DNA from: Candidatus Scalinduaceae bacterium | GTDB lineage: Bacteria; Planctomycetota; Brocadiia; Brocadiales; Scalinduaceae | Direction: 5' to 3' | Length of the DNA stretch: 50,044 nt | NCBI GenBank assembly: GCA_046759445.1 | Contig: JBHICG010000020.1 | Location: forward strand, 1-50,044 | In this document: positions 15,089 through 50,044 of the stretch, one piece after another | Layout of the letters: every line of letters begins with the position of its first letter | Position numbering within the stretch: the stretch's first letter is position 1 | The notes under the pieces: model-generated | Databases searched by the model: none | What the model was told of the DNA's origin: nothing | The model's input: the letters and a program-made list of their open reading frames with translations, nothing else | Position numbers and translations under genes: made by a program

Positions 15089-16540
15089 TTAAGCATTGCC
15101 TCGTAAATACTTCATTGCGAATTTTCGCAGTAGTCTTCTCAATCCCAGGGTATCTGATTTTGTGTCCAATACGGCCAAAATAGGCTTTCTTAATAAAAAT
15201 ATGATTTTAAGTAATAGTTTCTCAAGAAACAATGGCATTCTTATTTTCGAAAAAAGTAGCCGTGCGTAAAAGAACGATTGCATTAATTCAAAATATTTTT
15301 TCATTTCTTTGTGTGACATGAAAACTTCTTTTAGAGACGGCGCTTCTAAATAGCCTGATACAGATTCAAGGTCGTCTAACAGTAAGCCATAGTCTAAACA
15401 TAACTGATGTATCCTGCTTTTTGGATATGGGTAAAAATAAAAACATTTGCCAAAATCCGGTTGCAACTCCATGTTTAAATTAAGTGTGTCTTTTGCCATT
15501 TCAGTTGTTTCAAATGGCAGACCAACGATGTTGAAGGAGAAGCTCTTGATACCGTATTTCTTAGTTATCTCAAAGGCATCTTTTATTTTTCTATTTGAAT
15601 GTCTTCGGTTCAAGATATTTCTTCTTAGCCATTCGTTTCCACTTTCTACTCCGAAATCAATGGATATGCATCCGCCATGCTTAAGATCCTTTGCAACCTG
15701 TTCGCCCATGGTTTCAACCCTCGCGTTGCACAAGAACGGCAAATCAATTTCTTTTTTATATACCTCGCAAAATCCAGATAACCATTTCTTGTTTAATGTG
15801 AATGTGTCATCGGCAAAAATTATCTTCTTTGTTCCCGGGTATAAAGACAGGTTGTTTTTGATTACATTGATTGAACGCTCAATGGAAGGAAAACGTACAT
15901 AATCTCCCTTATTTGGATATATCTCGCGAAATGCGTGATTACAGCAATAGTGGCAATTATATGGACAGCCCCTCGATAACATCATTGGAAAGCACTGTCC
16001 ATTGTCAGAAATTATTTTGTCATAATCAAACAGTGTATAGTCTGGTAGAGGCAGGACTTCTACACCTTGCAAAGGGACTACAGCGTTCTTCCCTATTCCA
16101 TCATTTGTTCTAAAGCAGAAGCTGGGAGTGGCCAGGTAATCATCGCCATTATCTAACCTTCGACATAGTTCTCTTAAAGGGGCTTCACCCTCTCCAAGAC
16201 ATATTCCATCTATCTCAGGAAAATCCTTAAACACTTCCTCTTTAACCAAAGTACAATGCACCCCCCCCGCGACCGTTAACATCTCAGATAAGTCAGCTAT
16301 TTCTAGAAACCGCCGCACATGTTTTTTTTGGTTAGTGGTAAAGGACAGGCCAACTACATCCAGTTTTTCTTCTTCTAAGAACTTTATCGCTTTATCAAAG
16401 TCGTCTTCAAATATCAAATGGTGTAAATAAACTTTATGATTTTCGATCTTTAGTGTTCCGATAAGAGACGCAAGGCCATGATGAAAACTCGGATAATAAC
16501 CTGTATTGAGGTCAAAGTATATAAAAGTTATTCTTGCCAC
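15089..16540 (-). CDS. B12-binding domain radical SAM protein
   Basis: GGVHCT, GEGE, SRGCPYNCHYC (CxxxCxxC), ADDTF, GVESG, GLPFET. Confidence 0.88.
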   Translation of the reverse strand: MARITFIYFDLNTGYYPSFHHGLASLIGTLKIENHKVYLHHLIFEDDFDKAIKFLEEEKLDVVGLSFTTNQKKHVRRFLEIADLSEMLTVAGGVHCTLVKEEVFKDFPEIDGICLGEGEAPLRELCRRLDNGDDYLATPSFCFRTNDGIGKNAVVPLQGVEVLPLPDYTLFDYDKIISDNGQCFPMMLSRGCPYNCHYCCNHAFREIYPNKGDYVRFPSIERSINVIKNNLSLYPGTKKIIFADDTFTLNKKWLSGFCEVYKKEIDLPFLCNARVETMGEQVAKDLKHGGCISIDFGVESGNEWLRRNILNRRHSNRKIKDAFEITKKYGIKSFSFNIVGLPFETTEMAKDTLNLNMELQPDFGKCFYFYPYPKSRIHQLCLDYGLLLDDLESVSGYLEAPSLKEVFMSHKEMKKYFELMQSFFYARLLFSKIRMPLFLEKLLLKIIFLLRKPILAVLDTKSDTLGLRRLLRKFAMKYLRGNA

Positions 16541-19121: not shown

Positions 19122-20249
19122 TTAGTCGCTTTTACCCTTTTTGCTTGATTCAAACCATTCCTTAATTAACTTCGCCCTTAATGACCCACGTTTTGACCGA
19201 TACAAATCCAAGTTGGTATAAAGTGTACATTTACGGCATATTTCAGGGAAATCCCCCTCCGCAAAGCGATATCTTAGCCTTTTGGTAGCTTCTGATGACC
19301 ACAACTCCAGAAAGTGTGATTCAAGTATATTGCCAATAATAAGTTCGCTTTGCGCATTGATGTCTCGGCAACCGCAAAGCCCTACCTTTCCATCCGCAAA
19401 AACTGTTGGCCCATCGTAGAGCAAGTAACACGGCTCTTTTTCAAGTATGCTCAAAGGTCTAATATGCATCCCGTCAAGCAGATCCTTCTGCCCAATCTCG
19501 CCCAGCCATGTATCAAAGTCTGTATTAAATTCTATCTCATGAGGGTATTCGCGTATGGCCTGATAATCAGGCAGTTCCAATGTTTTCTTCATAGACATGT
19601 TTGAACGAAAACTGATTTTAATACGAACAGGTCTCCCTGTATCGGCATTTATCTTCAACAATTGTGTTACGTTTTGATTGACTCTATGATATTCTTTGCT
19701 ACGGTAGATTGATTGATAAAGTTTTTCATCCCATGGCCCTGTACTTATATTTATGTCAGTAATACCTGATTGGAGCAATCCTTCTATTCCAACCTTATCA
19801 AGATTTATGCCATTTGTAATTGTTGTAATTTTCGTAATTTCTGACCGTGATCGTGCCACTTTAATACGTTCTATTAGTTTTGGATCGAGTAATGGGTCTC
19901 CAACACACGTATGTAGCCTAAGTTCTCCCCCCCCAATAGAGCAATAGTCGTCCAGGGCCTTGAAATAAACTGCATCTGACATAACTATCTTAGGACGGGT
20001 TTGAAACTTATAAGCACAAAAAATACACTTCGCATTACAAATATTCGTAGGTTCAATATGGAGATTCCAAGGCCGGACTTCAATATGCTGGAGATTTTGT
20101 AAAAATTCTAAATTAGAGACCCTATCAAGGTAATTAAAACGTTCCCTGAGCACCCGAATGACAGTCATCCAGAACTCAGGAGTGAGTACTTCTTTACGGC
20201 GATGGATTGCAAACAGAGTTATACGTTTGAAATTATTTCGTAGATTCAT
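19122..20249 (-). CDS. Radical SAM protein with SPASM/twitch domain
   Basis: CNAKCIFC, GDPLLD, C-terminal PC...DGKVGLCGC...IGN...CRKC. Confidence 0.85.
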   Translation of the reverse strand: MNLRNNFKRITLFAIHRRKEVLTPEFWMTVIRVLRERFNYLDRVSNLEFLQNLQHIEVRPWNLHIEPTNICNAKCIFCAYKFQTRPKIVMSDAVYFKALDDYCSIGGGELRLHTCVGDPLLDPKLIERIKVARSRSEITKITTITNGINLDKVGIEGLLQSGITDINISTGPWDEKLYQSIYRSKEYHRVNQNVTQLLKINADTGRPVRIKISFRSNMSMKKTLELPDYQAIREYPHEIEFNTDFDTWLGEIGQKDLLDGMHIRPLSILEKEPCYLLYDGPTVFADGKVGLCGCRDINAQSELIIGNILESHFLELWSSEATKRLRYRFAEGDFPEICRKCTLYTNLDLYRSKRGSLRAKLIKEWFESSKKGKSD

Positions 20250-25367: not shown

Positions 25368-26885
25368 TCAAGTTCTAATATAAGACTTTCTGTTTTTAAA
25401 ATAACACCAACTTCCCAAAAGAATCGCCATTATATCGAAACAAAGATGTTTAAAGTTTGGATGTTTACTCACTAACAGGGTTCTCCACCTTCTATACAAA
25501 AATTTTCTAAAATATTTGTATTGGAAAAAGTGCCTTGCCCGATTAGTATAAGAGGATTTGGAATATCTTTTTTCTAAATAGTCCCATACCTCTTTAAGTC
25601 TTGTTTCTGAAATTAGATTCTCTGTTTTCTTTATTCTCCCCACGTTAAAATCGTCGTACGTTTTATAATATGGACTCGAAGCAATGGATGATGCATATTT
25701 ATCGTACATATACGTTCCAGGCAAAGCAGTGGTATAAGATGCATTCATAAAATGTGGTTTAACTTTTTCTATTAGGTTAACTGACTCTGTTAATTCCGCT
25801 TCAGTCTCGGTTGGAGACCCTAACATGATATTAGCTTGGGCTGGAAGACCTATCTCATGACAAATATTATAGGCATTAATAATATCATCATAACTAAGCC
25901 CTTTACAGAAGACTTCTTCTCTTATTCTTGTGCTTCCTGCTTCAAAAGTCATAACAACACCTACACAACCAGCATTACGCATCTTTAATAATACGTCTTT
26001 CCTTGCTCTATTAATTCTTCCGTTCGCATGCCAGAGTATACTATTTAGTTTGCTCTGAATCATTAAATTACAAAATCTGGATGTCCAATCATAGTCATAC
26101 GAAAAGGTGTCATCGTTAATCCAAAGACCATTAACATCATACTTTCTTTTGAGTTCTGCTATTTCCGCAACAACATTTTCCGGAGATCTTTTTCTTGTTT
26201 TTTTCCCAAACATTAAATCAACTGTCGGTTGGCAAAATGTGCAATTGTATGGACACCCTCGAACAGTTATTAATAACAGGCTTGGACTACCAAGAGGATA
26301 ACCGGCTCTTCCACGTATTACATTTTCAGGCAAAAGCTCTCTATCTATAAAAGGAAGATCATCAAGATTATTTATATAATCTCCTTTCTCCGTGGTAATC
26401 AGTTTATTCTCTTTATCTAATAATGCAATGCCTTTTACATTTTCAAATGACGGCATGTTTAAGGATATATTTCTAACTAAATCAAGGATTGAAATTTCTC
26501 CTTCCCCTATTATACAGAAATCAACATGCTTGCTTTTCAATGTCTCTTGAGGACAAACTGTTGGATGAGGGCCACCTGCAACAATTGTAACTTTAGGAAA
26601 ATCCTTTTTTATACCCATTGCCACTTCTTCAGCTTTACCAGCAAACATTGTAGTTACACTCAGTCCTACAATATCAGGTTGAAACCCGAAAACTTCCTTT
26701 TGGACATAACTCACTTTGTCCTCAGTTGTTTTACCTTCAAGGCCAATAAGTTTTACTGCATAACCCTCCTTCTTTAGTACAGTTCCAATATACAGCAAGC
26801 CCATTGGTTCATTGTCCAATGGTTCTAAATAAACTAATAATATCCTCATATTATGCTTAGTTGTTTCAGCACTACACATACACAA
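25368..26885 (-). CDS. B12-binding domain radical SAM protein
   Basis: PMGLLYI, GGPHPT, GEGE, RGCPYNCTFC, DDTF, GSPTET. True start is probably MRILLV. Confidence 0.88.
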   Translation of the reverse strand: MCMCSAETTKHNMRILLVYLEPLDNEPMGLLYIGTVLKKEGYAVKLIGLEGKTTEDKVSYVQKEVFGFQPDIVGLSVTTMFAGKAEEVAMGIKKDFPKVTIVAGGPHPTVCPQETLKSKHVDFCIIGEGEISILDLVRNISLNMPSFENVKGIALLDKENKLITTEKGDYINNLDDLPFIDRELLPENVIRGRAGYPLGSPSLLLITVRGCPYNCTFCQPTVDLMFGKKTRKRSPENVVAEIAELKRKYDVNGLWINDDTFSYDYDWTSRFCNLMIQSKLNSILWHANGRINRARKDVLLKMRNAGCVGVVMTFEAGSTRIREEVFCKGLSYDDIINAYNICHEIGLPAQANIMLGSPTETEAELTESVNLIEKVKPHFMNASYTTALPGTYMYDKYASSIASSPYYKTYDDFNVGRIKKTENLISETRLKEVWDYLEKRYSKSSYTNRARHFFQYKYFRKFLYRRWRTLLVSKHPNFKHLCFDIMAILLGSWCYFKNRKSYIRT

Positions 26886-36002: not shown

Positions 36003-36848
36003 TCAAGTTGACTTCTTCCTGTTTTTCGCTGTTATAAGTGCATGTAACTTGCTTCTCTCGTCAAGACATCTTTGCACATTCATGATATTCCATACCAACC
36101 CCTTCAAGATCAAAGATGCCCTTCTAAAATCATTCAACACTATATTTTGAAGAACTCTACCAAAGTTTTTTAACACCAACATTAAAAACGTACTCGCTGT
36201 ATACCCTTCAATAATATTTATGAATTTCAACTCAATGTATATACGATTTTTATATGACATAAAATACTGAAAATCCGTACTATTTTTGATCGAGCTTGAA
36301 TTTGGAGCCTTTTGATTCTCAAAAATGTGTCCACCATCTACAAAAAAAGGAATTTTAAGTTTTTTTGCTTTAATGAAAAACTCTGTATCATCACCATAAA
36401 TACCAATATTTTCATCAAATAAATTGCCATTAAGGTTTTTAAGCACTTCTCGTTGCACTGCAAACACTGACGATGTATTGAGTGGCATATGTTCCCCATT
36501 TTCCCATTGTAGTTTGGGGAAATTAAACCCTGCGGATACTTGTTCTAAAAACCCTCGTAACATTCCTGACGTAAAGATCACATCTCCATCTATAAAAACT
36601 AATGTATCGCCTACACTCTCATTTATGCCGCGATTTCTGCTATAAGCAACATACAATCTATTCTTATTTCTAAGTATTTGTATTTTTCTGGCAAATTTTT
36701 GTCTCAATATCGTATATGTGTCATCATCTGAGCAATCATCTATCACAAGAATCTCTACGGCTTGAATTCTCTCTGACAAAACTTGCTCAATAAGTGGAAT
36801 GGTTAATCTCTTACTATTGTAAGTAGGTATAATGATCGAATATTTCAC
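36003..36848 (-). CDS. Glycosyltransferase family 2
   Basis: SIIIPTYN, IDDCSDD, SRNRG, FIDGD. Confidence 0.85.
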   Translation of the reverse strand: MKYSIIIPTYNSKRLTIPLIEQVLSERIQAVEILVIDDCSDDDTYTILRQKFARKIQILRNKNRLYVAYSRNRGINESVGDTLVFIDGDVIFTSGMLRGFLEQVSAGFNFPKLQWENGEHMPLNTSSVFAVQREVLKNLNGNLFDENIGIYGDDTEFFIKAKKLKIPFFVDGGHIFENQKAPNSSSIKNSTDFQYFMSYKNRIYIELKFINIIEGYTASTFLMLVLKNFGRVLQNIVLNDFRRASLILKGLVWNIMNVQRCLDERSKLHALITAKNRKKST

Positions 36849-37945
36849 TATACATTCCTTTGGAAAAAATGTGTTAGCCTTCCAATGTTATATCTCTTGA
36901 AACAAACAAAACATGTGTGAGTGCAATAACATTTATCAACTATTTCCCTTCGTCTATTGGCATCTTGACTGTTCCAAATCCCTTTAAAGTCATAATTATA
37001 GTCATGCAAGTTTCCGAGTGGTTGCATGAATTCGCAAAATGAAACATCAAGATTTGAATAAACCACTCCCATATCAGTGCCTGCTATACAATCCATAGTT
37101 CTCTTCTTATGCTTGACCGTTTTTAAACATGCTTTAAATCTGCTAACTGCTGTCACATGACCTATTATAGTTCTCACTATACCTGTTTTTTTTATTTGCT
37201 TTCTGGATCGTAAAAAATTCCCCCAATATATCTTGTAGAAGTCTTTGACATTTGTAGTTATTTTATTACAGAAATCCTCTCGGAGCGCTTCCTCTTCATC
37301 TCCCAAAACAGTATGAACCTGTATATTTATAGGAAGATTTGAATGTTTTACCGACCGCACCAATTGAAAAGCAAACGCCCCTCCTATCTCATTCCATATA
37401 AAATCCTTCATTACCTTTAAATACGGGAAGTTAATGCTATTAATTGTTGCGCCTAGTCCTGTGGAAAAATTTGGCCAAGGCTGTTCCAGCTCTTTTAGCT
37501 GGTAATACGTTCTCATTGCACTATCAAAACTTCCCTTTCTTCCTCTAATTTTATCATGAACATCCTCTGGCCCATCAATGGAAATTGAAACAGATATTTT
37601 CTTCTTAAAGTTTTTATTTTCCTGTAAAATTCTTTTTACTTTTTCAACGATTATCCGAGAATTACTACCATTAGTTGGTATCGCAATAGAATTAGCCCGT
37701 ATTTCTCTTACAATATCAACCACCTCTTTGTTCAAAAAAGGCTCTCCACCGGTGATTATTACATGATCCAAAGGTAATGGAAAATTTTGCATGATGAGTT
37801 TAATATCATTCGCCGAAAGATCTCCAATCGCGGAATTTAAATCTTCGGCATAAAAACAATGCTTACAACTCAAATTACACCTGTCAGTAATAAAAATAAT
37901 CAATCGTTTCGGCAGTTTGTTCTCAAAAGATAGTTTTGCGTTCAT
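36848..37945 (-). CDS. Radical SAM protein with SPASM/twitch-like C-terminus
   Basis: CNLSCKHC, TGGEPF, SIDG..HDKIRG, CIAG...CE...GNL...CYCTHTC. Confidence 0.85.
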   Translation of the reverse strand: MNAKLSFENKLPKRLIIFITDRCNLSCKHCFYAEDLNSAIGDLSANDIKLIMQNFPLPLDHVIITGGEPFLNKEVVDIVREIRANSIAIPTNGSNSRIIVEKVKRILQENKNFKKKISVSISIDGPEDVHDKIRGRKGSFDSAMRTYYQLKELEQPWPNFSTGLGATINSINFPYLKVMKDFIWNEIGGAFAFQLVRSVKHSNLPINIQVHTVLGDEEEALREDFCNKITTNVKDFYKIYWGNFLRSRKQIKKTGIVRTIIGHVTAVSRFKACLKTVKHKKRTMDCIAGTDMGVVYSNLDVSFCEFMQPLGNLHDYNYDFKGIWNSQDANRRREIVDKCYCTHTCFVCFKRYNIGRLTHFFQRNV

Positions 37946-39665: not shown

Positions 39666-41897
39666 CTAACAAATCGTCGCTGTTTTCTTCTTTGATTCCC
39701 CTTCTCTACCATATCCATATCCATGCCTGTTATACGAAGCGTAATAATGATAGAAATAACTTCCTCTAGAAACATTTATATAATTCATGACAACACCCAA
39801 TATTTCAATTTTTGTGTTTCTGATTTGTGATATAGCTCTCTCGACTACTTTCCTCTCGTGTACACCAGATTTGACTAAAAATATCACTCCATCTAAAATA
39901 TTTGACAGGACAACCGCATCGGTAACAACCAATGAAGGTGGCGCATCGAAAATAACTGTATCATACCTTTCTCTTACAGTCTTGCAGAACTTTTCCATAC
40001 TGTTCGTACCCAATAGCTCTGAAGGATCAGGAGGAATCCTTCCACACGTAATAATGCTAAGATTAGGTATACTCGTAGACTTAATAATAGGCTCTAATTC
40101 GATTTCTCCAATAAGATAATCACTTAAACCTGGTTTCCTCTTAACATCAAATACTTCATTTAATCTGGGATTACGTAAATCTGCATCCACAACTAATGTA
40201 TTCTTGCCTGTTTGTGCTATTGCAACGGCAAGATTAGAAGCAACAAATGTCTTACCCTCACCCTTAGCTGTGCTCGTAATCAAAAATAATTTTTTGGGAT
40301 TGCTATCAGATGATAACATTATGCTTGTCCTTATGTTTCGGAAGGCCTCTGCAATATTTGATTTAGGCGTCTTATGAGTAATTATATCAAAAGAAGACTT
40401 TTTTTTACCATTTAGAGCTTTCACTTTCTCAAATGCGCCTAAGAGTGGAAGACCTAGATAGCGTTCAACGTCTTCAGGACTTTTTGCGGTTTTGTCAAAG
40501 CCTTCAAGCAAAAACGCCATACCAATTCCCAGGGTTAGCCCAATTATTGCTGCAAGTGTAATATTAAATATTTTCCTGGGTTTGATAGGAGATTTAGGGA
40601 TCTCAGCAGCATCAATAATTCTTGTATTACTTGTCTGCAGTTCTCCTTTAATGTCAGTTTCTTTCAACCTTTTTAGTAATATTCCGTACATAGCCCTTTC
40701 GCTTTCAGACTCTCTCTTTAACGTGCCATAGGCAATCGCCTTCCTATTAAGTTCCAGGGCCTTTTCCTTTTGGTCTTCAAGTGCTTTAGAAAGACTTTCT
40801 TCTTTTGACAATGCCACTTTATATTTTGTCTCCAGGCTTTTTACTAATTCATTTAGCTCAGTATTTATTCTATCTTTCTGCTCTTTAGCCTGTGCAACAA
40901 GCTTTACTAAGGTAGGATATTTTTCACCGTACCTACCACGTAATTTAGTAATCTCTGCTTTTGTATTTATATAATTTTTCTTCAACGCTTGAATAAGAGA
41001 ATTGTCCACAACATATGCAATGGATTCAATCATATCGGGATTATCAGAGAGTTTTTTTGTCTGGTTATAGAGAGTTTCCAGACCTATTCTTTCTGTTCTA
41101 ACATTTGTTAAGACTGTATTTAGATCCTCAAGTTTTTGGACTATGATATTTTGCCTGTCTTCAAGGGAAACAATTTTTTCCCTTTCCTTATATAGTTGCA
41201 AGGCATTTTCTGCTTTCTGTACCATTTCCTTTTTTTCATAAAGTTGCTTCTCAAGCAACTTAACTGCATATCGTGATGCAGCAAATCTCGCCTCAAGATT
41301 TCTTGTTATATATTCGTTGGCGTGCTTATTGACAATTGTCGTTATAATATCTGGATGAACTCCTTCAAAGCTTATGTTAACGAGGTGACTGCCCCTTACC
41401 GGTTTGATCTCTAATTTATTAAGATAGCTATCAATTAATTTGGAATTTTCATCGTCATTGTCAGATTTCTGAGATTCCTTTTCAGGACTTAGTTTTTTTA
41501 CAAGTAAACCTAAGATACCCCTAATGCTAAAATCCCTTGACTTTTCATCAGATTTAAATTCTGGACTATCCTTTAAGTTTAGCGAATTTATAACCCTCAG
41601 GGCAAGAGAACGACTAGCCAATATATTATATTGAGTTTTATGAAACATTTTAACTGTACTATTTAGCGACAGTACATCTTTGAATGCAATGACATTCGAA
41701 TTTTCTCTTTCAAACATCACTTGTGTTGTAGCTTGATAAATAGGAGTGGTTTTGAAAGAAAAGATGGTTGCGGTTGTAACCAATATGACGAAGAACGCCA
41801 TGATAATCCACTTGCGTCTAATAATAACCTGCCAATAATCTCTCAGATCAGCTTCTTCTACTACTATATTGTCATTTATATTGTTATTTTTCATCAA
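39666..41897 (-). CDS. wzc: Polysaccharide co-polymerase / BY tyrosine autokinase (Wzc/GumC)
   Basis: Wzz-like N-terminus, coiled coil, SPIKP, second TM, GEGKT, VDADLR, FDAPP, C-terminal Tyr cluster YFYHYYASY..GYGY. Confidence 0.95.
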   Translation of the reverse strand: MMKNNNINDNIVVEEADLRDYWQVIIRRKWIIMAFFVILVTTATIFSFKTTPIYQATTQVMFERENSNVIAFKDVLSLNSTVKMFHKTQYNILASRSLALRVINSLNLKDSPEFKSDEKSRDFSIRGILGLLVKKLSPEKESQKSDNDDENSKLIDSYLNKLEIKPVRGSHLVNISFEGVHPDIITTIVNKHANEYITRNLEARFAASRYAVKLLEKQLYEKKEMVQKAENALQLYKEREKIVSLEDRQNIIVQKLEDLNTVLTNVRTERIGLETLYNQTKKLSDNPDMIESIAYVVDNSLIQALKKNYINTKAEITKLRGRYGEKYPTLVKLVAQAKEQKDRINTELNELVKSLETKYKVALSKEESLSKALEDQKEKALELNRKAIAYGTLKRESESERAMYGILLKRLKETDIKGELQTSNTRIIDAAEIPKSPIKPRKIFNITLAAIIGLTLGIGMAFLLEGFDKTAKSPEDVERYLGLPLLGAFEKVKALNGKKKSSFDIITHKTPKSNIAEAFRNIRTSIMLSSDSNPKKLFLITSTAKGEGKTFVASNLAVAIAQTGKNTLVVDADLRNPRLNEVFDVKRKPGLSDYLIGEIELEPIIKSTSIPNLSIITCGRIPPDPSELLGTNSMEKFCKTVRERYDTVIFDAPPSLVVTDAVVLSNILDGVIFLVKSGVHERKVVERAISQIRNTKIEILGVVMNYINVSRGSYFYHYYASYNRHGYGYGREGESKKKTATIC

Positions 41898-42084: not shown

Positions 42085-42882
42085 TTACATATAAGTTTCC
42101 GGTACAACAACAACATCTCCAGGTTTTAGTATAATATCTAATGATTTATCACCTTTTCTTACCTTATTTAGATTAACCATTATAGTTTTCTCTTCTCCTT
42201 CTTCAACTCTGATAACCTTGATCCTATTTGGCGCTGCAAATTCTGTAAATCCACCTGCTTTGGCAACAGCTTCAAGCACACTTAAGTACTTGCCGAGTAT
42301 TGGTATTGCTCCTGATGTAGTTACTTCTCCAACGACAAAGACTTCTTTTTCCTTATGCCGCTCCATTAGCTGAATATCGAGCATTATGGTAACCTTTGGA
42401 TTTTTTATATAGCCATCCCTTAACCGTTCTTCCATAACTTTTTCCACTTCTTGAGTAGTTAATCCCTTTACATTTATACCTCCAATAAGTGGATAAGCAA
42501 GTATTCCTTCATCTGATACTCTTATACTCATGCTTAAGCCAGGTTCATCATAAATCTTAATGCCCAATATATCGTAACTATCAATTAAATATCTTTCTCT
42601 AAATTTAACATTAGTAATATTTTGATAATCAACCGCACTACTACTCTTTCTATATTCAGAACATCCAACTAAAGCAAAAAATAATAAACACGTTAGTAAA
42701 CCCCGTTGGAATTTCCCGCCCAGATGAATCCCCGTTCGCCCGCCTGCCATTTGTCGGGCAGGGACGGGCGTACGGAACATTAACACCCGTGAGAAAAAAC
42801 GGGCACTATCTAATTTTATCATCCCCCTGCTTACGCTCGATGCATTCCTACGGAGTAAATTTGAAACTAATTCTCTCAACAT
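42085..42882 (-). CDS. wza: Polysaccharide export lipoprotein (Wza/Poly_export plus SLBB)
   Basis: Lipobox LVGC, YPLIGGINVKGLT, VFVVGEV, AGGFTEFA, LKPGDVVVVP. Confidence 0.9.
   Translation of the reverse strand: MLRELVSNLLRRNASSVSRGMIKLDSARFFSRVLMFRTPVPARQMAGGRTGIHLGGKFQRGLLTCLLFFALVGCSEYRKSSSAVDYQNITNVKFRERYLIDSYDILGIKIYDEPGLSMSIRVSDEGILAYPLIGGINVKGLTTQEVEKVMEERLRDGYIKNPKVTIMLDIQLMERHKEKEVFVVGEVTTSGAIPILGKYLSVLEAVAKAGGFTEFAAPNRIKVIRVEEGEEKTIMVNLNKVRKGDKSLDIILKPGDVVVVPETYM
42701..42859. mobile_element. 159-bp MITE-like insertion in the wza signal-peptide region
   Basis: AGTAAA direct repeats at 42695-42700 and 42854-42859. Imperfect terminal inverted repeats CCCCGTTGGAAT / ATTCCTACGGAG. Internal nested palindromes. 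Confidence 0.65.
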
Positions 42883-43927: not shown

Positions 43928-45379
43928 ATGCGTTCGGAGCATATTAAGTTTATGTATCTAGTCCACTCTATTATAAAAACATGTGTTTTTTGTGTAATCG
44001 TGTTCATAATTTCAGGGATTTCGTCTGCTCAAGAAAATCAGACGACGGAGAGTGAAAATAGTTTATTCAGAAATAATATTGTTGAATTGTTAGGGAATAT
44101 TCCTAAATATTCCAAAAATCTAAACATTGGCCCGTTAAGATTATATCCCTCATTTGAGATATCGGAGGCCTTTGATGATAATGTCTTCGATGCAGCAGAT
44201 CCAGACGGTGTAACCGGTGATTTCTACACTACCTATAAACCTGCCATTTCACTTGTATTACCAATAAAGAAAAAAAAACATTTCCTTGAATTAAATTATA
44301 GCTCTGAAATTCACGAGTACACACGTGATTATTCACGCACTAATCAAGTAACAAATCAAGAACAAGACCATGTTAACCAATACTTTGGCGGCTCAGTAAA
44401 CCTCAATTTTCATAAAGGGTTCAGCGTCCATCTGTCTAACCAGACTTCCATGATTAGAGTACCTAGCAGTTTTACACGGCGTACGAATCCTCAAGTTCAA
44501 TTTCTAGGAGAACCTCCTGAGGAAGGTGAAGAACCAGAAGTCCTTGAACAGTTTGGATTTAATACATTTTCACCTCGAAGAGACCTGACTTACAACGTAG
44601 CATCGATCGTAATAAACCTGCCAGACTTTTTTGATAAGCTTGATTTCGATATTCATTATTCCAATCGAGATATCTCTTACAAAGGTAGGAAATTCAATGC
44701 AAGTGAACGTAACGAAGATCTTTTTGGAGGCGCTCTCATAATCAAACCCTTACCAAAAATCAGGATAACAACAGGCTTTGATTATGGGATCATAAAATAT
44801 GATTCTGCTTTCAGGAATGATTCTACCGTTCAAAGGATCCCCTTCAATATTTCCTGGCAACCCACGGACAAAAGCAATTTTTTTCTTGATACAAGTTACA
44901 ATACCAGAGATTATGGCCGCAGAAGTATTTTTGAGAATTTTCATGGTTATGATGCCACGTTAGGATACAGGTTTAACGTTGCAGAGAGAGATGAATTGAC
45001 AATAAAATTCGAAAGGAGTTTGAAAGAAGAACAATTTCAAACAGATCCGCTGATTTCATCTTTAGGAGATAATAATCCATATTTCTTTACACAACTCAAT
45101 GTAGATTACGTCCATAAATTTCACAGAAATATTTCCTTTATATTTTCACCTGCCTTTCAAACATTGAGGTTTCTTGAAAAGGATATAGATCTTATGTCTG
45201 GAGTCATTAAACGCGAGAAGGTAGACTTGATAAGAGTTAAAGTAACGGCTAGATATGATACACGCCGGGAATGGCTCTTTGGTGAAATTTCGTATAGCTA
45301 TCAGGACCGTGATAGTAATTTTGAAGATGGAGATTTGGTAAAAAATGTAGGACAAATCAGTGTGGGAATAAATTTTTGA
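43928..45379 (+). CDS. Outer-membrane beta-barrel protein of the type found in EPS loci
   Basis: Signal peptide (ISSA-QE), FDDNVF motif, alternating amphipathic strands, C-terminal Phe (VGINF). Confidence 0.8.
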   Translation: MRSEHIKFMYLVHSIIKTCVFCVIVFIISGISSAQENQTTESENSLFRNNIVELLGNIPKYSKNLNIGPLRLYPSFEISEAFDDNVFDAADPDGVTGDFYTTYKPAISLVLPIKKKKHFLELNYSSEIHEYTRDYSRTNQVTNQEQDHVNQYFGGSVNLNFHKGFSVHLSNQTSMIRVPSSFTRRTNPQVQFLGEPPEEGEEPEVLEQFGFNTFSPRRDLTYNVASIVINLPDFFDKLDFDIHYSNRDISYKGRKFNASERNEDLFGGALIIKPLPKIRITTGFDYGIIKYDSAFRNDSTVQRIPFNISWQPTDKSNFFLDTSYNTRDYGRRSIFENFHGYDATLGYRFNVAERDELTIKFERSLKEEQFQTDPLISSLGDNNPYFFTQLNVDYVHKFHRNISFIFSPAFQTLRFLEKDIDLMSGVIKREKVDLIRVKVTARYDTRREWLFGEISYSYQDRDSNFEDGDLVKNVGQISVGINF

Positions 45380-46491
45380 TTTTAATAAATATGGGAGACC
45401 CACTCAGGGCTTTTTATACACTAGCGGTTTTAAATCCACAAGAGGAGGATGTTCTAACTCTCCGTGCCTCTCATGTCGACTGGGACACCGTAGTTAAGAT
45501 TTCCTTTGAATTAAATTCTTCATATATATTTTATACAAACATAAAACGCTTTGGACTCGAGGCTTGCTTCAATTCCACAAACATCAAACGACTTCAAGCT
45601 GAAAAAGAATCGGCGATTTTCAATAATCTAATCCAGATAAAACATTTACATGAGATTTCAGGATTATTGCAAGCAAAAAACATTAAATTTATTCCGTTGA
45701 AAGGGCTATCTCTTATCACTGACACATATCCGGATATCGGGATGCGGATCAGTGCAGATCTGGACATCCTCATCCATCCTACTAATTTTGACAAATGTGC
45801 TGAAGTATTAAAGAAATCTTCATACAAATTTGAGCCCTCCCTAACCCGTGGCGTGATGACCAATCACGGCCAAGAGTGCATTGCGGTGTCTCAAAATAAT
45901 CTTGGGATAGATATACATTACAGATTTTTTGCATGGTATGAGGAAAAATATATTTTCAAAATCGATATTGCAAAGTTTTATGAAAATACCGTGAACAAAC
46001 ACTGGAAAGGCTATGATCTTGCTTATATGAAGAAAGAAGACGAATTTTATTACCTTCTGATGTGTATCTTTAGGTACCGCTTATGTACTTTCCGATACTA
46101 CCTTGATGCGGATGCAATCCTTAAGGTACATGGGGCAAATTTTGATTGGACTTTGGTAAAATCATATCTGTGGAGCAGCTCACTTAAACAATACTGGAAG
46201 ATACTCCTCAATTTCATGCGAGATAGACTGAAGACACCCATTCCCTATGAGTTGGCGCTACCCGAAGACGATGTATCCGAGAAAGCTTATTTATTCTTAC
46301 TTGACAAGCGCATTATGAAGCCCTGCACTAACAAGACTAAAACCCAGCTATTCTATCTTCACGCTGCTCAAAAATTCGTAGATAAGTTGGCGCTTGTGTT
46401 GTTATTTCTGAAATGGCAGCTCTTCAAACGTTTTGGATGTTTTAGGAGCTTTTTTATTGCCCATAATAATCCTAGACGCAATGGAACCTAA
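45376..46491 (+). CDS. Nucleotidyltransferase family protein (NTP_transf_5-like)
   Basis: IPLKGLSL, YPDIGMRISADLDILI, IDIHY. Start may be ATG 45391. Confidence 0.85.
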   Translation: MILINMGDPLRAFYTLAVLNPQEEDVLTLRASHVDWDTVVKISFELNSSYIFYTNIKRFGLEACFNSTNIKRLQAEKESAIFNNLIQIKHLHEISGLLQAKNIKFIPLKGLSLITDTYPDIGMRISADLDILIHPTNFDKCAEVLKKSSYKFEPSLTRGVMTNHGQECIAVSQNNLGIDIHYRFFAWYEEKYIFKIDIAKFYENTVNKHWKGYDLAYMKKEDEFYYLLMCIFRYRLCTFRYYLDADAILKVHGANFDWTLVKSYLWSSSLKQYWKILLNFMRDRLKTPIPYELALPEDDVSEKAYLFLLDKRIMKPCTNKTKTQLFYLHAAQKFVDKLALVLLFLKWQLFKRFGCFRSFFIAHNNPRRNGT

Positions 46492-46677
46492 TCATGCCTT
46501 CGGTATGACGCCGCTGGTTCAATCTTGTAGATTGAACCTTGCGTTTCCCTCTCCTCCTGTGGAGATTGCGTCACAAGGTCATTCTGAGCCCCCACTTCTT
46601 GCCCCTGCGCTTTCTTGCCGAAAGTAGGCTCTGTAAGAGCGAAAGCAAGATGCTGGGGCAGTGGGGGCGAAGAATCT
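46491..46677. repeat. Cluster of palindromes between convergent genes, including a triple-nested REP-like element (46578-46677)
   Basis: TCATGCC-ttcg-GTATGA; GGTTCAATCT-tgt-AGATTGAACC; GTCATTCTGAG[CCCCCAC...GTGGGGG]CGAAGAATCT. Confidence 0.75.
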
Positions 46678-46697
46678 CTTTATTTGTGTTTCGGCAT

Positions 46698-47576
46698 TCA
46701 ACGGCCTTGCCCCTGCAACCCTTCTATAAGCTCACATGCCCTATCCAAATTCCTCATTTCCAGGGTATAACACCTCGCCCTCTGTGCAAGCTTTATGCAT
46801 ATCTTTAGACCTCCGTCAGGAAATAGTTTTTGGTTCCAGCCGTTCTGCATTAGGCCAATCACGGCTTGAGCGGGAGCAAGTGGTTTTAATTCGGTTTTAC
46901 CTTTAGTGGTGTACCTGAGGAAAATAATCCGATCCACTCTCCATCTGGCGTCTTTAGGCATGATGGCGCCGTCTTGAGGTATAAAGTACGTCCATCTATT
47001 GGTAGTAGTACCATCATCATAACGGAAGCGATAGACTGAGAAATCCTTGACTACCTCTTGGCTAAGGGGACGTGACCATGTTCACGCAAAGATGTGCCTC
47101 TGGTAGGGAACCACCTCCAGAGTCTCATGATGGATGACACTCACCTCGTCTGTAAGATACCTATAACCGCAATTCATGAGCCCCAGGGTAAGGGTGGACT
47201 TCCCACTTCCAGACTCCCCCGGCAAGAGGATGGCCCTGCCGTTTTTTACTAACGCGCCGGAATGGAATATTAAATAATCCCTCACCTGCTCGCAACAGCT
47301 TTCTCTAATTTGGTGAACTAGAAGTGGGCGTAACTGAGGATCTTCTGCTCGATGGTAGATTGTACGTCCATCCTTCTCTATGTGCGTATACTTCCTCTTC
47401 TTCATCACCCTGAATCTTACTGCAGGTGGTTCCCCGTTAGCCGGTAATGCCAGTGCCGAGGTAAAATCACAAAATTCCTTTAAGAAGGATTTATGGTTGG
47501 TGGTTATTTCTATCGAAAGGGAGAGAACCTTCATATTGTGCGTTGAAAGTTCAGTGGCACGAGTCGCCTTCTTCAC
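46698..47576 (-). pseudogene. HprK-related P-loop kinase interrupted by one in-frame TGA (47082-47084)
   Basis: HSGAL, Walker A GESGSGKST, YLTDE. The same frame continues 40 codons past the TGA into ORF 46698-46961 (LAPAQAVIGLMQN...LDRACELI). GTG start overlaps the upstream stop and has a GGAGG RBS. Confidence 0.8.
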
Positions 47577-49153
47577 TTTAATGCCTCCTCAAGAAGGCCT
47601 TTCCCCTGGAATTCCTCGATCATATTAGTAACATCCCTTTCCACCTGAACAGTGTCAGCCGTTAGAACATCGACGATTTCCTTCGTTATATCCTTAACAG
47701 TATGGTTCCCGTCACATAGGTCCCAGATAACGATACCCAAAAGGTTCAGGTGATGCACGTTGTGATTCCTTGAGTCGTAAATGACTATCTCATCATCAAC
47801 ATCTCCACTGACAATGTCCCCCCTTTTCCTCGGTTTTCCTTTCATTTTCTTTCCTCCATTTCTTTTTATAAGCCCGGTATATGGATTATATCGGCATCGC
47901 GGGTTTTTAGATAATAAATCCCCTGTAGTGGTCTGTGCCAGGGCCCTGCAGTCAAAACACCCGTAGCGCAGCTCACAGTCCCTGCAGGTCTCTACCTCCT
48001 CCAGGGTTATCTGCCAGAGCCTCTGAAGGGCCCGCCTCTGTACTATCTCCTCCAGCCTCATCTCAGGAAATTTGCCTACAGACATCTGCCTTGCAAATAT
48101 GCAAGGATATACGTCTCCTTCACTACTTATGGCTATCTTGCCCTTCCAGCAGGTACCCCGGGTAAACCCCTTGTCACAGGCCCCCTGCCCTTCTTCAGAC
48201 GATGATGACGGCTTAAACGGGGTTACCTCAGTACAAACGTCTCTTCCCATGAGGGCAGATTCCGCCTCTCCCCTGCCAGTCGGCCTCACATAGTCCCATT
48301 CAATCTCCTTGTCCTTCAAGCCCAATCCCTTCAGGAACTCTACTGTATATGTAAGGTGGTACATGTTCTCCCTCATGAGGACTATGGCCACCCTTACAGG
48401 TATGTTATGGGCTAGGATGGCCCTTATACCCTGCGCCGTCTGACGGAAACTCCCGGTCCTCCCGGTAATGGTGTCATGCGTCCTGGGGTCGCAGGAGTAA
48501 AACGACAATGCCACCCTTACACCTGATAAGGCCCACTGTTGTAAAAGGCAGTCTTCAAGTCGGGTAGCGTTGGTAAAGACCTCTATCTCGCTGTACCGGC
48601 ATGACCGCGCATATTCTATAAGCTCCATGAGTCCCGGGTATAGGGTAGGTTCGCCTCCTGTGAACTGGACCTTCTTAGCGCCAAGCCGTGCACATTCAGA
48701 GAGTATGTCCTTCCACTGTTCAAGGGAAATATGTTCCCTCTCCATTGATGGAAGATGTTTAGGGTGAGGGTGGTTAGTTCCTGCCCCTTCATAGCAGTAT
48801 GCACAGAAAAGGTTACAGGACTTTGTGAGTTCCAGCCACACATAATCAAGACCAACCGGCCCTGACGCGTAAGACAAGTTTTGAATAGTTTCCTTCGAGA
48901 ACTCCTTGTTACTACTCCAGCTATCAGATAGTCCAGTAAGTGCAGGATGCCTTGCTAAATAGCTCCTGAGAACCTTGAGAGTATCTTCTTTAGATTTGCA
49001 GGACTGGTCTTCATCGAGCCAACCCTCAATGAGCTCAGCCATCAGAGGGTTTACAGAATAGACCTCTCCATTCTCAAGGTCATACAGGGCAGTATTGACG
49101 GGCCCCTTTACGGCGACGATATGGCTGCTTGTAAGGAAGGCTCCGTAACCCAT
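47573..49153 (-). CDS. Radical SAM/SPASM peptide maturase fused to a C-terminal PqqD/RRE domain
   Basis: CNLFCAYC, FTGGEP, SPASM CWKG...GDVYPC...CRDCELRYGCFDCRA...C. The last 90 aa are PqqD-like (EIVIYD..HHLN..IWDLCDG..DV..GLL). The N-terminal ALYDLENGEVYSVN segment is also RRE-like. Confidence 0.9.
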   Translation of the reverse strand: MGYGAFLTSSHIVAVKGPVNTALYDLENGEVYSVNPLMAELIEGWLDEDQSCKSKEDTLKVLRSYLARHPALTGLSDSWSSNKEFSKETIQNLSYASGPVGLDYVWLELTKSCNLFCAYCYEGAGTNHPHPKHLPSMEREHISLEQWKDILSECARLGAKKVQFTGGEPTLYPGLMELIEYARSCRYSEIEVFTNATRLEDCLLQQWALSGVRVALSFYSCDPRTHDTITGRTGSFRQTAQGIRAILAHNIPVRVAIVLMRENMYHLTYTVEFLKGLGLKDKEIEWDYVRPTGRGEAESALMGRDVCTEVTPFKPSSSSEEGQGACDKGFTRGTCWKGKIAISSEGDVYPCIFARQMSVGKFPEMRLEEIVQRRALQRLWQITLEEVETCRDCELRYGCFDCRALAQTTTGDLLSKNPRCRYNPYTGLIKRNGGKKMKGKPRKRGDIVSGDVDDEIVIYDSRNHNVHHLNLLGIVIWDLCDGNHTVKDITKEIVDVLTADTVQVERDVTNMIEEFQGKGLLEEALK

Positions 49154-49188
49154 AGGAATTCACCATAAACTTTAAGACACACACAAGC

Positions 49189-49368
49189 CTAGCTAGGCAG
49201 GCATTGAGCAGGGTTACATTTAGGTAAACACCTTTTCGCTGCATGGGCCTCGTCACTCAATGCAATTATAGTAGTGACTATGGGTATGGTGTATACACCC
49301 AGCTTCAACAACCTGCGGCGTGTCATTCGCTTCTGTTCTTCAGGACTATCGCTTTGTTTATCCAGCAT
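49189..49368 (-). CDS. Putative RiPP precursor, 59 aa, Tat-like leader plus Cys-x-Pro core
   Basis: Hand translation MLDKQSDSPEEQKRMTRRRLLKLGVYTIPIVTTIIALSDEAHAAKRCLPKCNPAQCLPS*. AGGAGG lies 6 nt upstream, and the ORF ends 35 nt before the rSAM start. It is just under the apparent 60-aa cutoff of the ORF track. Confidence 0.85.
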   Translation of the reverse strand: MLDKQSDSPEEQKRMTRRRLLKLGVYTIPIVTTIIALSDEAHAAKRCLPKCNPAQCLPS

Positions 49369-49447
49369 TTTGCGCCTCCTGCTCTCGGCTTATACATAAT
49401 AATAACATGTATTGCATTTTGGTAAATATTACAACTTGCAGAATAAA

Positions 49448-49531
49448 GGTGGATTCGCTTCGCTTAATCCACCTTACATATAACAAATTATGTTACGGAG
49501 GGTGGATTAAGGACGATAGGACGAATCCACC
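49448..49531. repeat. Inverted pair of REP palindromes (REPIN-like)
   Basis: GGTGGATTcgcttcgcttAATCCACC and GGTGGATTaaggacgataggacgAATCCACC in opposite orientation. Confidence 0.7.
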
Positions 49532-49615
49532 AAAAATATATTGATTCGACTAATTAAAATTCGTTTGAGTCATTTCTTCACTTTGTTCAGGACGGCGTCT
49601 GAACCCTTCGCCGCC

Positions 49616-49748
49616 TGTCATTCTGACCCCGCATCCTTGCTTCCGCAAGGAAGCAGCGGGGGAAGAATCTCTTTTTAGCGGGCCTTAGTCCCCCCACTTC
49701 TTGCCCCGTTGCTTTCTTGCTGAAAGCAAGATGCGGGGCAGTGGGGGG
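49616..49748. repeat. Two nested REP-like palindromes lacking the 22-nt inner insert
   Basis: TGTCATTCTGA[CCCCGC...GCGGGG]GAAGAATCT (49616-49670) and CCCCCACTTCTTGCCCC...GGGGCAGTGGGGG (49690-49748). Confidence 0.75.
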
Positions 49749-49835
49749 ATTTATTCACTATTGACCATATTTTCGGAGTAAACTCAATAACCATTTTATT
49801 TAGGTATCATATTCTTATTCTCTCGATAAAGTGTC

Positions 49836-50044
49836 ATGAGTAACTCACACTCACCTGATAAAGACTATGACCTCGTCTCAAAAGGCGCTGAACTATGCCA
49901 ATCCTGCGGACTTTGCTGTAAGGGAATGCTGCACGACCGTATAGACCTTGAAATTGATGAGACCGAACTAGTAAGCCAACTGGGACTAACCCCTTACCAG
50001 AAGAAAGTTGATTACGATGCTTTCGATTTGCCATGTCCATGTTT
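49836..50044 (+). CDS. YkgJ family (CxxCxxCC) cysteine-cluster protein, partial
   Basis: Hand translation MSNSHSPDKDYDLVSKGAELCQSCGLCCKGMLHD...FDLPCPC. Open to the window edge and not in the ORF track. Confidence 0.8.
   Translation, partial: MSNSHSPDKDYDLVSKGAELCQSCGLCCKGMLHDRIDLEIDETELVSQLGLTPYQKKVDYDAFDLPCPC

Follow-up and report, generated by a model that had tools for sequence, protein, structure and literature searches.

A candidate radical SAM peptide-maturation cassette with an HprK-like kinase and a twin-arginine-type leader in an exopolysaccharide locus of Candidatus Scalinduaceae

Introduction

The described systems that come closest to the locus treated here are the computationally defined HPr-rel-A system, the curated SynChlorMet cassette, lasso peptide clusters with kinase tailoring, the maturases of sactipeptides and ranthipeptides, and the systems with DUF2282 precursors. 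The locus lies in a Candidatus Scalinduaceae bacterium (Planctomycetota, Brocadiales; GenBank assembly GCA_046759445.1, contig JBHICG010000020.1), of which we analyzed positions 1 to 50,044 of the forward strand (this whole stretch of 50,044 nucleotides is called the window below). Three minus-strand genes of the window encode a 59-amino-acid peptide, a radical S-adenosylmethionine (rSAM)/SPASM enzyme with a C-terminal PqqD domain, and an HprK_rel_A-like kinase. On balance, we favor reading them as a maturation cassette of the type that makes ribosomally synthesized and posttranslationally modified peptides (RiPPs), belonging to a family that neither the curated library nor any paper found describes. 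The finding is probably a radical-SAM RiPP pathway that combines lasso-type kinase tailoring with a general-secretion leader.

The HPr-rel-A system (TIGR04352 plus TIGR04353 plus a nucleotidyltransferase [NTase]) has no known substrate. The cassette resembles it in that TIGR04352 is the best family for its kinase, in having a PqqD-type domain, in the PF14907 NTase nearby, and in its frequent exopolysaccharide (EPS) context. It differs in that its kinase and the window PqqD domain fall below the TIGR04352 and TIGR04353 cutoffs, in the fusion of PqqD to an rSAM/SPASM enzyme, and in the short core of its peptide, which is made of Cys-x-Pro (CxP) repeats. The canonical HPr-rel-A loci that were covered have no rSAM gene, and their open reading frames (ORFs) with a twin-arginine translocation (Tat) leader are 88 to ~270 amino acids long, with ~50 to 230 amino acids after the leader.

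SynChlorMet, which is curated and uncharacterized, likewise unites an HprK-like P-loop protein (ScmC), a PqqD relative (ScmD), and rSAM/SPASM proteins (ScmE/F) in one cassette, but it has two rSAM proteins where the present cassette has one, and PqqD is fused here. The two were compared by curated models, and all scores were low (ScmC, 16.2 bits against a cutoff of 125; ScmD, 38.8 against 100; ScmE, 78.6 against 400; ScmF, 69.6 against 400). Several of these computational cassettes reportedly go back to Haft and Basu (Journal of Bacteriology, 2011). A first-pass annotation of the window, made by a model from the letters and a list of ORFs, had not recognized the combination of genes as belonging to any described class. 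That view stands insofar as no curated family or paper covering it was found, but HPr-rel-A and SynChlorMet are curated precedents, with the cassette below their cutoffs.

In lasso peptide clusters, a homologue of HPr kinase places a phosphate on the C-terminal Ser of the precursor, largely independently of the remaining sequence, and an NTase adds one or two hexoses to the phosphate of that phosphoserine (PMC8498205); the lasso precedents that the first-pass annotation had cited agree with this review. The likeness to such clusters (paeninodin and pseudomycoidin) lies in the PqqD domains of the cassette, which match lasso PqqD models next best (30 to 41 bits), in a Y-x-x-P motif in the leader, and in a conserved C-terminal Ser or Thr in the window subfamily. 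In contrast to the lasso clusters, the scaffold enzyme of the cassette is an rSAM/SPASM protein, the leader is of the twin-arginine type and would not be cleaved in the cytoplasm, and there is no ABC exporter; no Pfam domain of a lasso cyclase (Asn-synthetase-like) or of a leader protease was present in the 39 window ORFs scanned.

The maturases of sactipeptides and ranthipeptides (SkfB, CteB, PapB, QhpD, and CrpC) are also rSAM/SPASM enzymes with a RiPP recognition element (RRE) that act on Cys-containing ribosomal substrates. In the CrpC/CrpA pair, short Cys motifs of a repeat protein are modified one by one (PMC13692751). That pair was considered as a member of the same family and rejected, as it belongs to TIGR04463, with C-X-X-Q/D motifs (PMC13692751). 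The cassette differs from all of these maturases in its C-x-P acceptor, which is not among the described motifs found, in reaching no curated cutoff, in its C-terminal RRE plus an N-terminal RRE-like domain, in its Tat-type leader, and in its coupling to a kinase. A leader that doubles as a general export signal, so that no dedicated protease or exporter is needed, is a feature shared with the DUF2282/DUF2063-RRE systems. Those systems use MNIO enzymes, where the cassette has an rSAM/SPASM enzyme and a kinase. Their DUF2282 precursors bear Sec-dependent signal peptides (PMC12710340) rather than a signal of the twin-arginine type. Among the papers listed in full-text searches of the available literature collection, none dealt with the cassette, with rSAM enzymes acting on CxP substrates, or with RiPPs that naturally have a Tat leader.

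Results

All genes described by the first-pass annotation were recovered in the ORF list and in the Pfam and NCBIfam scans, as follows.

49189-49368, minus strand: candidate precursor peptide gene, 59 amino acids
47573-49153, minus strand: rSAM/SPASM maturase with a C-terminal PqqD domain (RRE), 526 amino acids, by Pfam domains
46698-47576, minus strand: HprK_rel_A-like P-loop kinase, 292 codons, with one in-frame TGA at 47082-47084
45376-46491, plus strand: NTP_transf_5 (PF14907) NTase, convergent with the kinase, 107.4 bits in Pfam against a cutoff of 31.2

On the minus strand, the genes for the peptide, the rSAM/SPASM-PqqD enzyme, and the kinase follow one another in this order as an operon, with a gap of 35 nt between the peptide and rSAM genes and an overlap of 4 nt between the rSAM stop and the kinase start. 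The operon converges on the NTP_transf_5 gene at the edge of an EPS locus of ~45 kb.

The peptide (MLDKQSDSPEEQKRMTRRRLLKLGVYTIPIVTTIIALSDEAHAAKRCLPKCNPAQCLPS) consists of a leader (residues 1 to 43) and a core (residues 44 to 59) with three CxP motifs and a C-terminal Ser59. Tat signals have an RR motif resembling S/T-R-R-x-F-L-K, a moderately hydrophobic h-region, and an A-x-A cleavage site, and Y-x-x-P is the leader motif bound by lasso-type RREs. The leader of the peptide, with RR at 17 and 18, Y26-x-x-P29, and A41-H-A43, reads as a twin-arginine signal that has Y-x-x-P inside its hydrophobic stretch; by inspection, the string T16-R-R-R-L-L-K22 is followed by 15 uncharged residues and then by A41-H-A43. 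The peptide had no match in Pfam or NCBIfam, even at an E value of ≤5, and the NCBIfam TAT models likewise gave none.

Twelve homologues of the peptide were found in the protein collection (52 to 88% identity), and we aligned them with the window peptide and with the peptides of two related loci, L001 and L002 (loci and proteins from other genomes are cited by L and P numbers). T16, R17, R18, L20, L21, K22, L23, G24, Y26, I28, P29, T32, T33, A41, C47, P49, and K50 are invariant in these 15 sequences. Of the 15, 14 end in Ser or Thr, whereas the two or three residues just before the end vary; the sole exception is a 55-amino-acid entry that ends in Asn. A profile of the 15 peptides retrieved 38 cluster representatives at an E value of ≤1e-3 among 1.84 billion proteins. 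These representatives match the leader profile by construction, with RR-x-[LFM]-[LMI]-[KR] in all 38 and a Y-x-x-P-like motif in 36; at least two CxP motifs are present in 24, and 13 end in Ser or Thr. When a crude cut was used to delimit the leader, 13 representatives had no Cys after it, and 10 of these end in Ser or Thr. Nine of these 10 (P0258, P0259, P0261, P0263-P0266, P0268, and P0278) have basic, Cys-free cores ending in Ser, mostly as G-[LIF]-S, and from their sequences this group look like substrates for the kinase alone.

We next consider the maturase. Pfam assigned Radical_SAM (81.5 bits) and SPASM (34.2 bits) above cutoff, as well as PqqD (46.6 bits) at residues 455 to 521 (47591-47791). 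The CX3CX2C motif is formed by C113, C117, and C120 (48794-48817) and the SPASM cysteines lie between C335 and C420 (47894-48151); C113, C117, C120, C335, C351, C390, C393, C399, C402, and C420 are invariant in 34 sequences. Characterized maturase families (AlbA, SkfB, StsB, PapB, QhpD, ScmE/F, PqqE, and others) were weighed by their curated cutoffs, and all 25 best NCBIfam matches listed for the enzyme lay below cutoff, the top one at 105.7 bits against 500. More broadly, none of the 14 rSAM proteins and none of the 24 peptides scanned reached a curated NCBIfam family. The PqqD domain of the window enzyme ranked ScmD first (38.8 bits), lasso PqqD models next (30 to 34 bits), and then TIGR04353 (19.7 bits), all below cutoff. 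Against TIGR04353 (cutoff, 35), the domains of L001 and L006 scored 25.9 and 20.7 bits, and that of L005 passed with 37.8. The N-terminal ~80 residues of the enzyme (48914-49153) have a beta3-alpha3, RRE-like topology and aligned with the C-terminal PqqD domain in hhalign at a probability of 54% over 27 columns, a weak match; together, the order of elements and this match suggest that the enzyme may carry two recognition domains. Extra free-standing PqqD proteins occur in L003, L005, L050, and L067.

A word-index search returned 844 related proteins at an E value of ≤1e-10 among 8000 candidates scored. Of the relatives, 33 have 54 to 85% identity to the window enzyme, and the named ones belong to Planctomycetota/Brocadiales. 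Species-representative genomes were scanned with an alignment of 34 PqqD-fused homologues, and 80 loci were taken from the 192 confirmed stretches. Profile searches divided these 80 loci among three architectures. Architecture A, with the C-terminal PqqD domain of the window enzyme, accounted for 16 loci. Architecture B (22 loci) has the same N-terminal domain and a full SPASM region without PqqD, and it occurs in Patescibacteria, archaea, and Clostridia. In architecture C (42 loci), the enzyme is short, and its truncated SPASM region gives way to a Cys-Pro-rich tail; Alphaproteobacteria, Gemmatimonadota, Acidobacteriota, and Dyella are among its hosts. When the shared core was used for a quick maximum-likelihood tree, the window enzyme grouped with L001 and L002 (SH-aLRT, 100) and group C fell on one side of a branch (support, 90), with A and B interleaved.

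CxP motifs accompany all three architectures. At least three CxP motifs within 30 residues were found in 60 of the 80 loci; in 24 they lie in an adjacent ORF on the same strand, and in 36 they lie in the tail of the enzyme itself. With a threshold of at least four CxP motifs per 30 amino acids, the 319 kb on the rSAM strand close to that gene (or fused to it) contained 56 clusters, and the other 704 kb, both strands counted, contained 0. These results indicate that the gene arrangement is more than chance, since it recurs in other phyla and the CxP clusters are confined to the neighborhood of the rSAM gene. Moreover, the motif stays with the superfamily across its three architectures and across many phyla, which speaks strongly for C-x-P as the site on which the enzymes act.

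Tails of (C-x-P)n at the rSAM C terminus were observed in L020, L022, L030, L032, L033, L036, L037, L039, L041-L043, L046-L048, L051, L053, L055-L058, L061-L063, L066, and L069-L079, with Dyella and Kitasatospora among the hosts. The fused tail occupies the position of the last part of the SPASM region in the window enzyme, and no NCBIfam family covers these enzymes; the tail could be a substrate that is modified in cis or in trans or an odd cluster-binding region. Separate CxP-rich peptides, with neither PqqD nor a kinase, were seen in L011, L012, L019, L021, L027, L035, L040, L044, L054, L065, and L068 (Patescibacteria, Saccharibacteria, Clostridia, and archaea), and their leaders carry other motifs, such as E-L-T-K-V-T or L-V-T-P.

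The first-pass annotation had proposed to check whether homologous rSAM genes are preceded by a short ORF that combines a leader of the twin-arginine-like type with a CxP core, and conservation of such an ORF was supported: a small upstream ORF with a CxP core is present in 11 of the 16 PqqD-fused loci (L001-L006, L008, L014, L015, L050, and L067), in two copies each in L014 and L015. No precursor was found in the other five (L007, L009, L017, L018, and L060). The sequence of L007 begins inside the rSAM gene, L017 and L060 lie on contigs of <3 kb, L009 has a fused remnant, and none is visible in L018. In L009 (1162-2916), a near-copy of L008, the start of an L008-like peptide runs directly into the rSAM N terminus, and judging by this arrangement it has apparently lost its precursor gene.

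The kinase belongs with the PqqD-fused rSAM enzyme. With hidden Markov models built in this analysis, it was detected in 15 of the 16 loci of architecture A, 0 of the 22 of B, and 0 of the 42 of C, in line with the co-occurrence that the first-pass annotation had put forward for testing. The lone A locus without it is L017, whose contig ends ~310 bp after the rSAM gene. The evidence is weaker at several A loci: the kinase of L018 is encoded on the opposite strand, and L014, L015, and L060 gave weak matches that lie in long high-GC ORFs. TIGR04352 (HprK_rel_A) is the best NCBIfam match of every orthologous kinase, at 86 to 157 bits and thus under the cutoff of 200, and the two halves of the window kinase scored 67.5 and 39.4 bits against the same cutoff. 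Among PDB sequences, the best match of the kinase is the HPr(Ser) kinase 3tqf (E value, 2.6e-4). HPr kinase shares the fold of PEP carboxykinase, and an AlphaFold2 (AF2) model of the L001 kinase (mean predicted local distance difference test [pLDDT], 86.2) had PEP carboxykinases as its best folds (TMq, 0.62 to 0.65); an HPr kinase chain was not among the fold matches listed for it.

The NTP_transf_5 domain was detected with the same kind of models in 7 of the 16 loci of architecture A and in none of the 22 of B and the 42 of C. The window NTase itself has no family in NCBIfam.

To place the cassette relative to orphan HPr-rel-A systems, we searched plasmids by tblastn with the L006 kinase, which gave 12 records, and the neighborhoods of 7 of these (L081-L087) were covered. 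In L081 (Sphingomonas), the Prokaryotic Genome Annotation Pipeline names are "HPr-rel-A system PqqD family peptide chaperone," "HprK-related kinase A," and "nucleotidyltransferase family protein"; the kinase (228 bits) and the PqqD protein (60 bits) are both over their cutoffs, and there is no rSAM gene. PqqD and the kinase are fused in L083 and L084. In 5 of the 7 plasmid loci, the kinase or the PqqD-kinase fusion has a neighboring ORF with a twin-arginine leader, and two of these ORFs are unannotated.

L081, 5900-6433: twin-arginine-leader ORF, directly upstream
L082, 5629-6453: twin-arginine-leader ORF
L083, 5655-6032: twin-arginine-leader ORF
L084, 4070-4393: twin-arginine-leader ORF
L086, 2810-3076: twin-arginine-leader ORF

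No twin-arginine ORF was found in L085, which has a solitary kinase, or in L087. The plasmid leaders align with the window leader over RR-x-[FL]-[LI]-[KR]-..-G-x-[YFA]-x-x-P. Because homologous leaders stand beside HPr-rel-A loci, polypeptides with a Tat leader appear to be the general targets of the PqqD-kinase-NTase module, and the window cassette appears, from its gene and motif content, to be this module joined to a CxP-type rSAM enzyme.

We also compared the surroundings of the cassettes. Glycan genes, whose co-occurrence the first-pass annotation had suggested checking, flank 6 of the 11 loci annotated with Pfam (L001, L002, L003, L005, L006, and L007). L001, L003, L005, and L007 share genes for PIG-L, Glycos_transf_4, an AAA_22 ATPase, and HD_5, and the AAA_22 ATPase of L001 scored 234 bits, below cutoff, with the XrtA/PEP-CTERM ATPase model. 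A PEP-CTERM protein gene lies between the precursor and rSAM genes of L006 (5286-6098), and in L017, the sister locus of L006, a PEP-CTERM-like C terminus (~500-700) lies just upstream of the rSAM gene. L050 and L067 (Nitrospirota) have no such glycan genes, and L014 and L015 are poorly called. The EPS association is therefore recurrent and not universal. In the window, the following genes adjoin the cassette.

39666-41897, minus strand: wzc-like tyrosine autokinase/copolymerase (Pfam/NCBIfam)
42085-42882, minus strand: wza-like export protein (Pfam/NCBIfam)
43928-45379, plus strand: EpsL/BBP2_2-like outer membrane protein (Pfam/NCBIfam)

The best NCBIfam matches of these three genes are XrtA/PEP-CTERM-type EPS export families, below cutoff, with the exception of the eps_fam tyrosine autokinase domain (196.7 bits against 108). 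Positions 2 to 38 kb of the window hold the EPS locus proper, with priming glycosylphosphotransferases, a Wzx flippase, a Wzy-like protein, and many glycosyl- and methyltransferases. PurH, encoded at the opposite end of the window, shares 79% identity with the protein of Candidatus Scalindua japonica, its best named match, and the host is probably an anammox planctomycete similar to Scalindua. No exosortase gene was seen in the window. Searches of the 80 loci by phmmer with the window outer membrane, Wza-like, and Wzc-like proteins gave no match, so the link to EPS is one of functional class and not of orthologous neighbors. Four further rSAM genes lie within the EPS locus, all on the minus strand (15089-16540, 25368-26885, 19122-20249, and 36848-37945); two are B12-binding radical SAM proteins, one is an rSAM/SPASM protein, and one is a further radical SAM protein, and no curated family covers them.

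Finally, the composition of the three minus-strand genes sets them apart from the rest of the window. Their GC content is 0.47 to 0.50 (0.47 to 0.54 at third codon positions [GC3]) versus 0.31 to 0.43 (GC3, 0.27 to 0.42) for 14 other window genes, and a composition scan of the window showed steps at ~46500 and ~49750. Palindromic repeats mark both edges.

46570-46690: palindromic repeat element at the low-coordinate island edge, downstream of the kinase; core direct repeat at 46589-46624
49620-49750: palindromic repeat copy or copies at the high-coordinate island edge, upstream of the peptide gene; core direct repeat at 49691-49726, inverted repeat at 49689-49749

The direct repeat (D1) is 36 nt long, with 89% identity between the two edges, and its 16-nt core occurs twice in the 50-kb window, both times at the island edges (chance expectation, 0). 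The three genes are thus a GC-rich, repeat-flanked island inside a Scalindua-like EPS locus. The repeats could be footprints of island insertion or terminator- or repetitive extragenic palindrome (REP)-like elements. An Rfam scan of 45000-50044 gave only two matches to microRNA-like hairpins, both on the palindromic repeat; they were below threshold and were discarded as chance matches.

Discussion

The gene content, the co-occurrence counts, and the conservation of the leader, of the first CxP motif, and of the C-terminal Ser or Thr are observed directly. We infer each chemical step, the export by Tat, and the link to EPS in a pathway that would run as follows. Thioethers, tailoring by phosphate or sugar, and a possible attachment to the neighboring glycan had already been suggested by the first-pass annotation and have the same standing. 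The leader of the 59-amino-acid precursor would be at once a Tat signal and a binding site for PqqD-type recognition domains. The rSAM/SPASM enzyme would dock on this leader in the cytoplasm and modify the Cys residues of the C-x-P motifs in the 16-residue core, most likely giving short intramolecular thioether cross-links. The HprK-like kinase would phosphorylate the Ser59 hydroxyl, and an NTP_transf_5 enzyme may then extend the phosphate with a nucleotidyl or sugar group. The modified peptide would leave the cytoplasm by Tat, and signal peptidase would cut after A-H-A. No dedicated protease or transporter would be needed, since Tat accepts folded or cross-linked cargo and signal peptidase removes the leader. 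In such a system, the orphan HPr-rel-A module, which is widespread, would be combined with one enzyme of a large rSAM/SPASM superfamily that has (C-x-P)n as its hallmark substrate.

Several observations weigh against this pathway or restrict it. Starting with the peptide, only the first CxP motif is invariant in the window subfamily; the second is present in 13 of the 15 sequences (L001 and L002 counted), and P0132 and P0133 have one CxP each. The C-terminal Ser to which the first-pass annotation had drawn attention holds among the close relatives and not beyond them: only 1 of the 8 complete kinase-linked precursors outside the window subfamily (L003, L005, L006, L008, L014, L015, L050, and L067) ends in Ser or Thr, namely, L008, in Thr, and the others end in P, G, or K. 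Many of these other precursors have a Ser immediately before the first Cys. Furthermore, the precursors of L003, L005, L050, and L067 keep K-Y-V-K-P-x-V-E-T but have neither RR nor the hydrophobic region, so Tat export would be a feature of part of the family. Since the precursors of the wider clade mostly do not end in Ser or Thr and four of them lack RR, neither the kinase target nor the export route would be uniform. There are no tat genes in the window. As for the maturase, its AF2 model has a mean pLDDT of 67, with >90 in the core, 70 to 88 in PqqD, and low confidence (pLDDT, ~50) in the N-terminal ~80 residues, that is, in the putative second recognition domain.

The place of the NTase is a further point of this kind. 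The first-pass annotation had counted it with the system, and its convergence with the kinase and the co-occurrence of NTP_transf_5 at other cassettes hold. However, the start of the window NTase gene overlaps the stop of the upstream outer membrane gene (45376-45379), which places it in a plus-strand unit with that gene, and its GC content of 0.379 is host-like, compared with 0.476 to 0.495 for the kinase and rSAM genes. In addition, its identity to the NTase from the L001 cassette is only 23%, where the L001 and L002 NTases share 78%, and the island ends 206 nt past the kinase, so that a cognate NTase of the L001/L002 type is absent here. Host GC, low identity, and overlap with the outer membrane gene together make the window NTase probably a neighbor of the island and not a member, and its link to the operon is weak.

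The last point that weighs against the pathway, the in-frame TGA that interrupts the window kinase, means that the tailoring half may be inactive here, and it is also the first argument for an alternative in which the cassette is a decaying remnant of a horizontally acquired island that yields no mature product, in a family possibly functional elsewhere. The raised GC and GC3 of the operon, a flanking repeat unique in the window, and an NTase that is not orthologous to the usual NTase of the cassette fit this alternative as well. We nonetheless consider it unlikely. The stop is single, without a frameshift, and the full-length identity of the kinase to its intact L001 orthologue is 67%, with the P-loop (G125/K126) and the Y140..D143-E144 motif intact and conserved. 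The TGA aligns with S in L001, W in L002, and K or E elsewhere, and a stop at such a nonconserved position points to a recent nonsense change or a sequencing error rather than to recoding; it could also be leaky. Selenocysteine or another genetic code was considered for this codon and rejected, as the kinase also terminates with TGA and the aligned residues are never Cys. Moreover, the peptide and rSAM genes are intact and keep all catalytic cysteines, and modification by the rSAM enzyme alone would still yield a product.

A second alternative concerns the chemistry. Short repeated Cys motifs of known rSAM RiPPs (CxxxD and NxxC) give in-motif thioethers, which argues for the cross-links proposed above. 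The solved structures nearest to the window enzyme, SkfB and CteB, are likewise RiPP maturases that form thioethers. Anaerobic sulfatase-maturating enzymes (anSMEs) act at C/S-x-P/A-x-R. With Pro invariant at +2 and x free, the motif could specify a link from Cys to Pro or to the backbone, or Pro could be a conformational signal like that in the sulfatase C-x-P-x-R motif, and this second possibility keeps alive a reading in which the rSAM/SPASM enzyme oxidizes the C-x-P Cys to formylglycine and the exported, aldehyde-bearing peptide could condense with amino sugars of the EPS. The invariant Cys and Pro at i and i+2 with a free x between them make up the first half of the sulfatase motif, and anSME is itself a SPASM enzyme and is among the fold matches of the AF2 model (rank 15; E value, 2e-9), which run SkfB, MoaA, CteB, BlsE, and SuiB, then anSME and PqqE. 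PIG-L deacetylase genes in L001, L003, L005, and L007 and DegT aminotransferase genes in L001 and L003 would both supply free amino sugars. However, the cores have no conserved Arg at +4, NCBIfam sulfatase_rSAM is not among the 25 best matches of the window enzyme, and among PDB sequences anSME scored 57 bits against 120 for SkfB (the best match; E value, 1e-33) and 80 for PqqE. We therefore hold formylglycine formation to be quite improbable and retain the thioether-forming RiPP pathway.

Very improbable, in our view, is that the enzymes act on the polysaccharide or on PEP-CTERM/EPS proteins and that the 59-amino-acid ORF encodes a Cys peptide exported by Tat but unrelated to them, such as a metal binder, or is no gene at all: the four other, likely sugar-acting rSAM genes of the locus, the PEP-CTERM genes inside the L006 operon and just upstream in L017, the rSAM and kinase genes of L009 without a precursor found, and the non-peptide relatives of HprK-like kinases (the L006 kinase weakly matches the FomB model) speak for such targets, but PqqD domains are peptide-binding elements, CxP cores track the superfamily across its architectures with none elsewhere in the 704 kb at that density of at least four, the peptide is conserved in length, start, leader, and C terminus, and the kinase and the PqqD fusion co-occur solely in the clade with such leaders.

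If the RiPP pathway proposed here is correct, it would provide a substrate for the curated orphan HPr-rel-A system, to which no peptide is assigned, and it would define by (Cys-x-Pro)n a large rSAM/SPASM superfamily spread over candidate phyla, archaea, and common bacteria from soil and marine habitats. It would also be a natural case of a Tat signal that doubles as a RiPP leader, which would account for the exit of a cross-linked, phospho-tailored peptide that has no exporter of its own. The EPS/PEP-CTERM context makes the role of accessory genes in biofilm polymer loci testable, anammox bacteria included. A more far-reaching joint reading is a long shot: the kinase and the NTase would make an activated phosphate handle on the C-terminal Ser of a Tat-leader peptide that forms a phosphodiester to the EPS or its repeat unit, the rSAM-cross-linked peptide would serve as a cap, primer, or anchor of the EPS in PEP-CTERM-type loci, HPr-rel-A in Proteobacteria would be a general machine for tagging Tat polypeptides, and the rSAM enzymes with (C-x-P)n substrates would make up a large RiPP class, so far undescribed, in three architectures: separate peptides, tails fused to the enzyme, and the kinase-linked form of the window.

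Additional features of the window

One match to a promoter lies in front of the peptide gene.

49396-49426, minus strand: sigma-70-like promoter match, 28 to 58 nt upstream of the peptide start, with 9 of 12 hexamer positions and TG before the -10 element

Four sites of this type were found against 7.5 expected in shuffled sequence, and this match is not statistically distinguished. A small hairpin at 49187-49202 (minus strand), also not above shuffle expectation, overlaps the peptide stop codon where the precursor gene gives way to the rSAM gene and could set the ratio of precursor to enzyme transcript. About 470 nt upstream of the peptide gene, a divergent ORF (49836-50042, plus strand) with a C-x-x-C-x-x-C-C motif runs off the end of the window. 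In protein P0268, a Pfam CxxCxxCC domain (24.5 bits) and a peptide of the leader family are read in one ORF, which suggests that a gene of the CxxCxxCC type is a recurrent neighbor.

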